DNA of 64,000 nt from a virus (taxonomy: Duplodnaviria; Heunggongvirae; Uroviricota; Caudoviricetes). Below the pieces are notes generated by a model. It worked only from the letters and a program-made list of their open reading frames with translations, ran no database searches and was not told the origin of the DNA. Of the stretch, positions 11,031 to 59,350 are shown in pieces. Position 1 is the stretch's first letter. Every line of letters starts with the position of its first letter. The stretch lies in the IMG/VR virus record IMGVR_UViG_2778261268_000002; one strand, written 5' to 3'. The translations under genes and the position numbers were made by a program.

Positions 11031-11052
11031 TTCTACCGCTAGTCATTTGTTG
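11031..11052 (-). promoter_or_regulatory. P1 late-promoter-like motif (AACAAATGACTAG...TAGAAT)
   Basis: Reverse complement reads AACAAATGACTAGCGGTAGAAT, nearly identical to the motif upstream of the putative portal gene. Confidence 0.45.
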
Positions 11053-11072
11053 AATATTTAACTCAATAAAAG

Positions 11073-11089
11073 AAAATTATTAGTGCAAT
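11073..11089. promoter_or_regulatory. C1 operator-like site (degenerate)
   Basis: AAAATTATTAGTGCAAT, 2 mismatches to AAATTTATTAGAGCAAT, in a divergent intergenic region. Confidence 0.4.
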
Positions 11090-11146
11090 TTTGATTGTGA
11101 AATGTATCATTCTGCCCTTAAGTAGGTTCTTCACGAGGAAACAAAA

Positions 11147-11392
11147 TTGGCAGAACGTGTTGATGATGCAGAGCTGAGCATGAATCAGTTAGAAGCTCTC
11201 AAAGACATGGCCATCGATAACATCAGAAAGCAGGCACAGGCCGTGAGCCAGGTATTTACAGGGAAGTGTCGTTACTGCAATGAATCGATTGAATCAGGCA
11301 TTTATTGTGACGCTGAATGTGCGCAATGGCACAGGGAAGAGCAGGCCGCAAAACAGCGTAAATATGGCATGCGACCGGCAGGATTTGACTGA
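11147..11392 (+). CDS. TraR/DksA-family C4 zinc-finger protein
   Basis: CRYCNESIESGIYCDAEC four-cysteine motif; probable TTG start with RBS GAGGAA (alternative ATG at 11180). Confidence 0.55.
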   Translation: MAERVDDAELSMNQLEALKDMAIDNIRKQAQAVSQVFTGKCRYCNESIESGIYCDAECAQWHREEQAAKQRKYGMRPAGFD

Positions 11393-11394
11393 TT

Positions 11395-11973
11395 ATGTTG
11401 CGCTTTACTGAGGAAGAGTTTCAGGCTTTTAGTGAGCGTCGAAATAAGGGGCGGTCCAGGCCAAAAACCAAAAAGGATCCATTCTTATCGCTTGCGCCGG
11501 TAAAAGAAGTTTCTCCACATGCGAAGGCACTTGCAGCACTTGCAAAGAACCCAGACCTGCGCGACGGAAATTGCGAGCACTTCGAGCAGGTTTTCATTTT
11601 TGATTACTTCGAACGCAAGCACCCTGACATCTATGAGCTGTTGCATGCAACGCCTAACGGAGGGAAACGTTCAAAAGCAACCGCCGGGAAAATGAAGGCT
11701 GAAGGGCAGAAAAAAGGTTATCCGGACATGAGTCTCGATAAAGCATGCGGTATTTATCACGGCATGCGAATTGAGCTTAAAGAACCAAATGGTAAAGCCC
11801 CGACGAAAGAGCAGATCGCCTGGATGCGCAGGCTTAGAGAGGAAGGTTACTACGTCGTTCTTGCGTATGGTGCAGAACAAGCGATAACCGCCATCCTGGA
11901 ATACATAAGCCTTAAAAAGGGTGAGGCTATTGAGCATGTATTGAACGGCGACAAGTGGTTGTATGCTGCTTAA
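11395..11973 (+). CDS. VRR-NUC domain nuclease
   Basis: HATPNGGKRSKATAGKMKAEGQKKGYPDMSL matches the VRR-NUC core (PNGG...K...G.PD). Confidence 0.7.
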   Translation: MLRFTEEEFQAFSERRNKGRSRPKTKKDPFLSLAPVKEVSPHAKALAALAKNPDLRDGNCEHFEQVFIFDYFERKHPDIYELLHATPNGGKRSKATAGKMKAEGQKKGYPDMSLDKACGIYHGMRIELKEPNGKAPTKEQIAWMRRLREEGYYVVLAYGAEQAITAILEYISLKKGEAIEHVLNGDKWLYAA

Positions 11974-57923: not shown

Positions 57924-57924
57924 G

Positions 57925-58536
57925 TTAATTTCCTGCTTTCAGTTGCTTAAGACGGCGTTTGAGTTCGCCATTTCGGGCCTTTTCGTTATTGAGTCGGCCT
58001 GTCTCCTTATCCAGCTTCGCCCGCAAATCAGTGATCTGCTGTTGATTGAAAGACACCGAGTTCTGCGCTGATTTATAAGCGGCAACCACCTGAGCATTCC
58101 GCTGTTTTGCCTCTTGCAGGCGCTGAAAGTTGGATTTTACTGCCGGTTTCTTGTCTACCGGATTGGCAACACGTTTCGCTTTGGCGATCAGTGATTTCTG
58201 GAATTTTGCGGAGTTTTTGCGGGCCGCTTGCCCCATGACGGTACCAAGCGTCTTGATATCCGGCGACTGAGCGTTAGGAATAGCTTTTCCATTCAGCCTC
58301 ACAGACGATATATCGCCAGTATCGTTTACCTGTATGGCAAGAATTTGTCCGTCGTTAAGAACCAGCTTTGCGGTTTTAACTTTAACGCCATCTTTCGTTG
58401 TTGCGCGGTTGCTGGAGTCAACCTCAATTACCGTAACACCGGTTTTATTGATCGCCGCGATAAGGGATTTCAGCCCCTTTTCATTAACCTGGTCAAAATC
58501 GACCGTTGCATACTTATTTTTCGTCATCTGACACAT
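57925..58536 (-). CDS. hdf: coiled-coil protein upstream of darA (P1 Hdf-like by position)
   Basis: 203 aa; C-terminal basic coiled coil; 1-nt spacing to darA. Confidence 0.5.
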   Translation of the reverse strand: MCQMTKNKYATVDFDQVNEKGLKSLIAAINKTGVTVIEVDSSNRATTKDGVKVKTAKLVLNDGQILAIQVNDTGDISSVRLNGKAIPNAQSPDIKTLGTVMGQAARKNSAKFQKSLIAKAKRVANPVDKKPAVKSNFQRLQEAKQRNAQVVAAYKSAQNSVSFNQQQITDLRAKLDKETGRLNNEKARNGELKRRLKQLKAGN

Positions 58537-58957
58537 CCTGTGCGAGATTTATTACGTAACTTCTGCGGATTTGCTGAGTAACAGGGAAAATCCGATACAA
58601 CGGGTTAATGAACGAGTCGCCATGCGTAACCATGACGTTGAAATGCCACAGCCGTTCTCCTTTACCCATATATTCAGTGGGTATGTACAACCATTCACTG
58701 TTTTCGCCCTGTTCAGCCGACGTCAGACAACGTTGTTCGCCTTCAATCACTGTCGTTGGCTTCTGAACATCGCGGATCCAATATCTGACCGTTGCGCCGC
58801 GCAAAAACGGGAATTTAGACCGGTATTTGAACGGCACCCGGATGAAACCCGGTTTAATTTCCACATCACCAAGTTCTAAATGCGTGATGTCCTTGCGTTT
58901 TAGCAAATAGCGATCGGCTAAGGCTAACGCAAGAGCGCATACACCCCAGCCAATCAT
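58514..58957 (-). CDS. lydB: putative antiholin (P1 LydB-like by position)
   Basis: 147 aa immediately downstream of the holin-like gene with 4-nt overlap. Confidence 0.45.
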   Translation of the reverse strand: MIGWGVCALALALADRYLLKRKDITHLELGDVEIKPGFIRVPFKYRSKFPFLRGATVRYWIRDVQKPTTVIEGEQRCLTSAEQGENSEWLYIPTEYMGKGERLWHFNVMVTHGDSFINPLYRIFPVTQQIRRSYVINLAQDVSDDEK

Positions 58958-59283
58958 TTCCCGCCTCCCTTTTTCACCAAACTTGTAAGAACATTCAGAA
59001 TGCTATCGATATTCACTCGTTTCATCCCTGAAATCACCTCATGACCGTTATTGCTGGCTATCGTTACCATTAAGTACGTAATTGATAACTCCCAGCCCTC
59101 GTGTTGCCCCAATAGGTACGCCACCGCGCCAGCTGTCACTGCAACAAAGATCTCCGTAACCAATCCCAACAAATTGCCAGACTGGCGACCGTCTCGGACA
59201 TCCATCAGGAACGTGCCTATCCCACCAATTACTGAAAGCAGGAGCGCAATAGCAACTGGAGCTAATTCCTGTGTGTCAAGCAC
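58954..59283 (-). CDS. lydA: holin (P1 LydA-like)
   Basis: 109 aa, GTG start with strong RBS TAGGAGGGA; two or three transmembrane segments. Confidence 0.55.
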   Translation of the reverse strand: MLDTQELAPVAIALLLSVIGGIGTFLMDVRDGRQSGNLLGLVTEIFVAVTAGAVAYLLGQHEGWELSITYLMVTIASNNGHEVISGMKRVNIDSILNVLTSLVKKGGGK

Positions 59284-59321
59284 AAGTTCCCTCCTACGTT
59301 GTCAGGAGGTAATGGTATGCA

Positions 59322-59350
59322 AAGTAACTTCTCAACCGGTCATTTGTTGC
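59322..59350 (-). promoter_or_regulatory. P1 late-promoter-like motif upstream of the holin gene
   Basis: Reverse complement reads GCAACAAATGACCGGTTGAGAAGTTACTT, sharing the AACAAATGAC core with the site at 11031. Confidence 0.35.

Follow-up and report, generated by a model that had tools for sequence, protein, structure and literature searches.

How are the late transcription units of a P1-like phage marked in its DNA, and can they be delimited from a short recurring word? The question is raised by a stretch of 64,000 nucleotides from a Caudoviricetes virus (IMG/VR record IMGVR_UViG_2778261268_000002; this whole stretch is the window in what follows), where an earlier note had listed near-identical copies of a motif, AACAARTGAY, at four sites, and had proposed them as late promoters dependent on the activator protein Lpa and as markers for late transcription units. 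The elements are, in our reading, very probably the Lpa-dependent late promoters of P1-type phage, as their homology with phage P1 indicates. The motif itself is not new: it is the long-described P1 late-promoter element, already annotated at these positions in the P1 record (AF234172), and it has been rediscovered correctly. The P1 late promoter and Lpa are said to have been first described in the early 1990s, the primary work reportedly being that of Lehnherr, Guidolin and Arber in 1991 (J Bacteriol 173:6438) and 1992 (J Mol Biol 228:101), and the late promoters of P1 were reportedly mapped genome-wide in 2004 (Lobocka).

Correspondence with the late promoters of P1

Its sequence, about 98% identical to that of phage P1, marks the window as a P1-like plasmid prophage. 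Over 12 kb around the motif sites the identity to P1, and to its relatives P7, SJ46 and RCS47, is 98%, and in a blastn comparison with AF234172 the whole window is collinear with P1 68.0-94.8 kb and then with 0-35 kb. The P1 record carries 11 'late promoter' features (LPs/Ps, LP23, LP26, LPpmgL, LPsit, LPpro, LPlyz, LPdar, LPpac, LPmat and LPhot, served by Lpa, which is gp10, together with SspA), built from a 9-bp '-22 region' and a -10 hexamer that follows 4 bp on (9 bp in LPhot). Six of these, LP26, LPpmgL, LPpac, LPpro, LPlyz and LPdar, recur in the window without a change (19/19 bases), and LPmat has a diverged homologue, LPmat-like, which matches P1 2678-2696 at 15 of 19 bases (P1 has the box AAGTGACTT and the -10 CAGAAT at this site, against AAATTACTT and CAAAAT in the window); LPs, LPsit and LP23 of P1 fall outside the window. 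All seven sites are intergenic and directed into packaging, head, tail, lysis or Dar operons, and each of them except LPpmgL precedes, in the same orientation, an operon for morphogenesis, packaging or lysis (Table 1). Common to P1 and the window are the box, the 4-bp spacer, the class of -10 hexamer, the lack of a -35 hexamer, the downstream operons, and an identical lpa gene with its operator.

The product of lpa (gene 10) is 100% identical to the Lpa proteins of P1 and P7 by tblastn, and window positions 27471-27570, which include the C1 operator Olpa and the promoter Plpa, are identical to P1 89899-89998. A scan of genome contigs with Lpa returned 3 near-identical loci only. The proposal that the motif fits Lpa-dependent late promoters is thus borne out by the overall identity with P1, by the 'late promoter' features at homologous positions in AF234172 and by the unchanged activator gene.

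Table 1. Late-promoter elements, additional motif copies and the activator locus in the window. PWM, position weight matrix score; JK004, Cronobacter phage JK004.
Feature	Position	Strand	Flank, box, spacer, -10	PWM	Downstream unit and remarks
LP26	11030-11048 (full 11030..11051)	-	AAC 11051-11049; AAATGACTA 11048-11040; gcgg; TAGAAT 11035-11030	26.9	Tail/baseplate genes 26-25-7-24-6-5 (11000 down to 6249); -35 match at most 1/6; box and -10 kept in JK004, flanks diverged
LPpmgL	11040-11058	+	TAGTCATTT; gttg; AATATT	11.1	Towards pmgL (11147..); divergent late promoter annotated in P1
LPpac	28047-28065 (with flank 28043..28065)	+	tGAC; ATGTGACTT; tcgt; TACCCT	25.5	pacA (28101-29294), pacB (29294-30778); conserved in JK004
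LPmat-like	35847-35865 (with flank 35843..35865)	+	tGAC; AAATTACTT; ctgt; CAAAAT	23.3	mat
LPpro	45010-45028 (with flank 45006..45028)	+	tAAC; AAGTGACTA; gtgt; TAAATT	28.2	prt (portal, 45071-46780), pro; conserved in JK004
LPlyz	50065-50083 (with flank 50065..50087)	-	tAAC; AAGTGATTT; gcat; TATCCT	25.5	lyz-lydD/lydE; unit closes at a terminator-like hairpin and T run, ~49134-49160 (-); partly conserved in JK004
LPdar	59312-59330 (with flank 59312..59334)	-	tGAG; AAGTTACTT 59322-59330; tgca; TACCAT	21.7	lydA (holin, 59283-58954), lydB, hdf, darA, ddrA, ddrB, hxr (down to 52335); ACTT half and -10 kept in JK004
Gene-7 site	9325-9347	-	cAAC; AAGTGACTG; ttga; TAACCT	21	Late-promoter-like, unannotated; codons 16-23 of gene 7
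Orphan motif copy	59337..59348	-	AAC; AAATGACCG		Follows the lydC stop codon closely; LPdar box 17 bp downstream
Olpa	27476-27492	+	ATTGCTCTAATGTATTG		C1 operator, annotated in the P1 record; overlaps the sigma-70 promoter Plpa (27490-27517)
lpa (gene 10)	27563-28015	+			Late promoter activator; Pfam PF25716 BPP1_LPA 'Late promoter-activating protein', E = 3.1e-57

Anatomy and enrichment of the element

The consensus box extracted from the P1 promoters is AAGTGACTT, preceded by (G/A)AC. The P1-type element is accordingly about 12 bp long, (Y)RAC-AAGTGACTT, that is, a 9-bp imperfect palindrome near -22 with an AC on its upstream side; a TAnnnT hexamer stands 4 bp downstream at -10, and there is no usable -35. 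Imperfect AAGTnACTT-like repeats form the boxes of LP26, LPpac, LPmat-like, LPpro, LPlyz, LPdar and a further site inside gene 7, and at all seven the distance from box to hexamer is 4 bp. No site matches the -35 hexamer at more than 2 of 6 positions with spacers of 16-18, and a scan for sigma-70 promoters reported nothing at LP26 or at the gene-7 site. LPpmgL uses the near-palindromic box of LP26 as read on the opposite strand. Among 19 sites of P1, JK004 and the window that differ in sequence from one another, the base at -2 relative to the box is A in 19/19 and the base at -1 is C in 18/19, a conservation equal to that of any position in the box; the conserved recognition element therefore appears to extend to the AC just 5' of the annotated 9-bp box, and would be asymmetric rather than a simple palindrome. 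AACAARTGAY is the most conserved part of this element, the AC flank joined to the first seven positions of the -22 box. As originally spelled it captures the most informative columns, beginning 3 nt upstream of the annotated box and stopping short of the end of it.

A search of the window confirms that the motif recurs: there are five copies, at 9337-9346 (-), 11042-11051 (-), 45007-45016 (+), 50077-50086 (-) and 59339-59348 (-), against 0.78 expected from dinucleotide shuffles, none of 100 of which reaches five. Four had been listed before, the copy at 9337 inside gene 7 being left out, with positions that lie within a few bases of real elements. The copies at 11042, 45007 and 50077 are LP26, LPpro and LPlyz, and each is followed by the -10-like hexamer that had been described (TAGAAT, TAAATT and TATCCT), the gap being 6 bp, or 16 bp from the start of the motif, in place of the ~10 bp given. 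The fourth case is a mixture of two neighbouring elements. The coordinate reported for it, 59322, is the low end of the LPdar box AAGTTACTT, a real promoter whose flank and box together (GAGAAGTTAC) differ from the spelled motif at three positions; the copy that does carry the spelling, 59339-59348, is not the promoter, and the hexamer at the corresponding distance, AGAAGT, is not -10-like.

Extending the pattern to the hexamer sharpens the signal. The composite AWRTKAYT-N5-YAnnnT occurs 8 times versus 1.26 expected (0/100 shuffles reach 8), and a position weight matrix (PWM) built from the P1 sites scores above 20 at 7 sites in the window, versus 0.03 per window in mononucleotide shuffles. 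One pattern match, at 21495-21513 (-), is probably a chance occurrence, with a poor -10 (CATCGT) and an orientation antisense to the local genes. As a tool for delimiting late units, which was the use foreseen for it, the ten-mer falls short: it finds 3 of the 7 P1-homologous late promoters (4 if the box common to LP26 and LPpmgL is counted for both) and passes over LPpac, LPmat-like and LPpmgL, which do not match its spelling. The practical value of the present analysis is one of annotation. The full composite, RAC-AAGTGACTT-N4-TAnnnT, delimits the late units of this prophage correctly, and the corrected promoter list in Table 1 can replace the ten-mer for that purpose.

Conservation in JK004 and exchange of the box in D6

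Two more distant relatives allow the element to be viewed against a diverged background. Cronobacter phage JK004 has about 75% nucleotide identity and an Lpa that is 67% identical, and pairwise alignments show that the box and -10 persist at its counterparts of LPs, LP23, LP26, LPpac, LPpro, LPlyz and LPsit amid flanks that have diverged; the P1-type box and -10 precede the homologues of R, gene 23, gene 26, pacA, prt, lyz and pmgC.

Phage D6, a P1-like plasmid prophage whose Lpa is 31% identical to the P1-type protein, presents the complementary case. The P1-type pattern is found 8 times in the window, 13 times in P1 and once in D6, whereas a different late box, AAATCACA(A/T)ACT-N3-YAnnnT, has 12 matches in D6 versus 1.6 in shuffles, and 1-2 each in the window, P1 and JK004. 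These D6-type sites lie upstream of the portal gene, lydA, R, pmgB, the capsid gene, gene 7, gene 26, mat and a lysis gene, the positions equivalent to the late operons of P1. As in the window, a conserved box thus stands just upstream of a -10-like hexamer, with no obvious -35, before the portal, holin, R, capsid, 26, mat and lysis genes; the D6 box itself, AAATCACAnACT, is unlike the P1 type in sequence, is not palindromic and lies 2 nt farther from the -10. Box and activator have been exchanged together, as would be expected if the box is the recognition element of Lpa, and the pair offers a natural specificity-swap system for this protein.

Expression and a proposed route of activation

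In published RNA sequencing (RNA-seq) of P1vir, the median increase from 10 to 30 min is 6.8 log2 for the 37 genes that follow these promoters and 4.2 log2 for the other 68 P1 genes (Mann-Whitney p = 4e-14; supplementary table of PMC8201110). Early-type behaviour is seen for hot in the same data (PMC8201110), and upfB, mlp and upfA show late-type kinetics, with changes of at least 6 log2.

Published accounts of P1 supply the steps by which such elements would act. In P1, 11 late promoters share a conserved 9-bp inverted repeat to which Lpa binds (PMC10695390), and a reporter driven by LP23 needs Lpa (PMC8546580). In a passage of PMC1891329 that cites Hansen et al. 2003, Lpa is a sequence-specific DNA-binding activator that is thought to contact host SspA directly, and SspA is there described as not binding late promoter DNA. 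Following the P1 literature, lifting of the C1 repressor would allow lpa to be transcribed from its C1-controlled sigma-70 promoter, and Lpa would then recognize the -22 box of the elements in the window. Together with SspA, which is associated with the host RNA polymerase, it would enable the sigma-70 holoenzyme to initiate at promoters that are otherwise dead, with transcription expected to start about 7 nt after the -10. The operons switched on in this way would be those for packaging (pacAB), head (prt-pro, mat), tail and baseplate (26-25-7-24-6-5) and lysis (lyz-lydD/E, lydAB), as well as the Dar operons.

Weighing the evidence

Several points weigh against identifying the elements as Lpa-dependent late promoters, or limit how far that identification reaches. 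The function ascribed to the elements in the window is carried over from P1 by identity. Since the matrix derives from P1 sites, finding their homologues in the window with it is circular; it also served, with its AC flank columns, to select the JK004 sites, which are biased towards it. The comparison of activator and box with D6 is the test that stands apart from the P1-derived matrix. The 9-bp palindrome AAGTNACTT alone, with one mismatch allowed, is not enriched in the window (26 matches versus 22.7 expected), and the box therefore needs its flank and the -10 to be diagnostic. The match of LPpmgL is weak (Table 1), and pmgL-pmgQ are already highly expressed at 10 min (PMC8201110), an early behaviour which suggests that the LPpmgL unit is mainly early. 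Finally, one review-type source (PMC8198154) terms Lpa an 'RNA polymerase binding factor' and not a DNA binder, a label which implies that its exact contacts are not fully settled.

We considered whether the copies might owe their recurrence to chance alone, as a short AT-rich word without a common function. Chance would place some 0.8 copies of the ten-mer in the window, and may thus account for one of the five; the one at 59339 has no -10, and the palindrome by itself is no commoner than expected. The excess of the ten-mer and of the composite over shuffled sequence contradicts this view, as do the fixed spacing to the -10, the placement of the sites between genes and in line with late operons, their conservation in JK004 against diverged flanks and their identity with annotated P1 promoters. 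For the set as a whole chance is already refuted, and we give it almost no weight. A different proposal would make the elements operators of another regulator (C1, Lxc or a factor from the host) or the remains of a mobile segment that had been duplicated. P1 does have many dispersed C1 operators, some of them near late promoters, such as O26 at about 30 bp from LP26; these have an annotation of their own, and their sequence, ATTGCTCTAATGTATTG at Olpa, is unrelated. The fixed 4 bp to the -10 and the missing -35 speak instead for a promoter, in D6 the box and Lpa change jointly, and the flanks of different copies share no homology, which copies of a duplicated segment would show. We regard this proposal, too, as highly improbable. 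With the anatomy, enrichment, orientation and conservation of the motif, its identity with annotated P1 promoters and the presence of lpa all matters of observation, Lpa-dependent late promoters are the reading that we hold with high confidence.

Two additional copies of the motif

The gene-7 site and the orphan copy near LPdar raise the separate question of whether there are more Lpa-responsive elements than the 11 annotated in P1, the former acting as an internal late promoter for 24-6-5 and the latter as an auxiliary Lpa site for LPdar. This addition to the identification made above was judged on its own, and we consider it rather doubtful.

The gene-7 site has the full architecture, with AAC flank, box, 4-bp spacer, TAACCT and no -35, and a score as high as its own is expected 0.03 times per window. 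In gp7 it corresponds to an acidic linker of low conservation that comes after the conserved MxGxFD N-terminus; being inside a coding region, it is not intergenic or upstream of an operon in the strict sense. The same sequence occurs in P1 at 76780-76802, and neither this site nor the orphan copy is annotated as a promoter in the curated P1 record. In D6, genes 7-24-6-5 form a late unit of their own with their own late promoter, split from 25-26 by a toxin-antitoxin insert, which makes an independent late start for these genes plausible. In wild-type RNA-seq at 30 min, genes 7 and 24 stand about 1 log2 above 26 and 25; a dksA host does not show this step, and what the values measure is fold change and not abundance. 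Conservation does not favor the site: JK004 keeps 16 of 23 bases, equal to the surrounding coding background, and 78 IMG/VR relatives are too similar to be informative. A scan of viral contigs by gp7 alignment gave 80 loci, all at least 98% identical, in which the site is invariant except for one -10 variant, and a more distant search among plasmids gave a bimodal distribution of identities (at least 95%, or 60-80%) with no intermediates.

For the orphan copy, the argument is one of position. By our estimate (about 8 promoters x 60 bp / 128 kb), the probability that a random copy of the ten-mer falls so near a late promoter, at most 30 bp away and on its strand, is below 1%, and the box of LPdar itself is without the conserved AC flank. 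The copy is present in P1 as well, at 31239-31248. Against a function are its lack of a -10 and of conservation in JK004, and its box (59337-59345) is a poor palindrome with two symmetric positions only. It may be a relic, or it may be an auxiliary site for LPdar. If the gene-7 promoter is real, it would give the tail genes 24-6-5 a late start of their own, mirroring the D6 unit; this internal candidate and the AC flank are possibly of interest to P1 specialists.

Features adjoining the promoters

A number of features were noted beside these elements. LPmat-like is overlapped by an upstream TTGACA at a longer spacing, as in the dual Pmat/LPmat annotated in P1, where control is both early and late. 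Between LPmat-like and mat lies a leader of about 135 nt (35866-36010, +) that contains a long helix and then a terminator-like hairpin with a T run (AGCCGCC-GCT-GGTGGCT, TTTTCTTTTTT, at about 35956-35990); its fold is -47 kcal/mol with z = -2.3, and no Rfam family matched it. D6 has the same layout of late promoter, leader, GC hairpin with T run, and mat. Possible roles for the leader are those of an attenuator, a target for antitermination or a small late RNA. A 1-nt deletion relative to P1 throws the first 37 codons annotated for P1 Mat out of frame with the remainder, so that the true start is probably the internal Met of MDKKICVV and the P1 annotation over-extended.

The neighbour of LPpro on the other strand is darB (38228-44995, -), whose start codon is separated from the LPpro box by 15 nt. 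In P1vir RNA-seq darB has late kinetics (4.8 to 11.7 log2), its only annotated promoter is a predicted sigma-70 promoter, and no P1-type late promoter was found upstream of it on its strand.

Relative to P1, several segments of the window are swapped, and the DNA specific to the window matches many E. coli P1-like plasmid prophages. At 17125-24415, ead/Ea22-like, DUF551 and toprim-like genes stand in for the region from pmgT to hot, an arrangement found in many E. coli P1-like plasmids; owing to this replacement the window has neither LPhot nor hot. A scan of the window-specific segments for LPhot-like promoters, with the spacer allowed to vary over 2-10 bp, gave weak matches only (22575, 17936 and 14866). 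The EcoPI res/mod genes are absent, their place being taken by a short segment, 36637-37493, with an open reading frame (ORF) for a GNAT acetyltransferase (36783-37388). Between pro and lydD/E there is a 1.3-kb insertion, 47788-49125, whose ORF at 47832-49040 (-) codes for a TnpB-type protein of 402 amino acids with the Pfam domains OrfB_IS605, Cas12f1-like TNB and HTH_OrfB_IS605, which identify the insertion as an element of the IS200/IS605 family. It adjoins, just past it, the terminator-like hairpin that closes the lyz-lydD unit.

Comparison with other phages

Isolated sites of the P1 type occur in the compared genomes as well. D6 contains one perfect P1-type late promoter at 71092-71114 (+), TGAC AAGTGACTT tcat TAATCT with a PWM score of 25, in the intergenic region of gene 26 and mat and ahead of a 44-codon ORF; a relic of recombination is one possibility, a site that responds to a co-resident P1-type Lpa another. 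In P1, a late-promoter-like site lies directly upstream of ppfA at 63962-63984 (-), TAAC AAAGGACTT catt GATAAT, with a score of 13. The compared JK004 segment has TGAC AAATGACCT ggcg GAAAAT at 23653-23675 (-), with a score of 17, upstream of a 423-nt gene that is taken to be a ppfA homologue from its equal size and corresponding position. Neither of the two carries a late-promoter annotation.

Late promoters that lack a -35 hexamer and depend on an activator are familiar from other phages, among them P2/P4, where Ogr/Delta is associated with a dyad near -55, Mu with its C protein, and T4, whose late promoter TATAAATA is used with gp55/gp33. To our knowledge, these systems and P1 Lpa are not members of the same families. 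P1 has in common with them that its late genes are positively controlled through the host RNA polymerase at promoters without a -35, and it differs from them in the location of its box at about -22, between the usual -35 and -10, in its use of the host co-activator SspA, and in an activator, Lpa, that constitutes a Pfam family of its own, PF25716.

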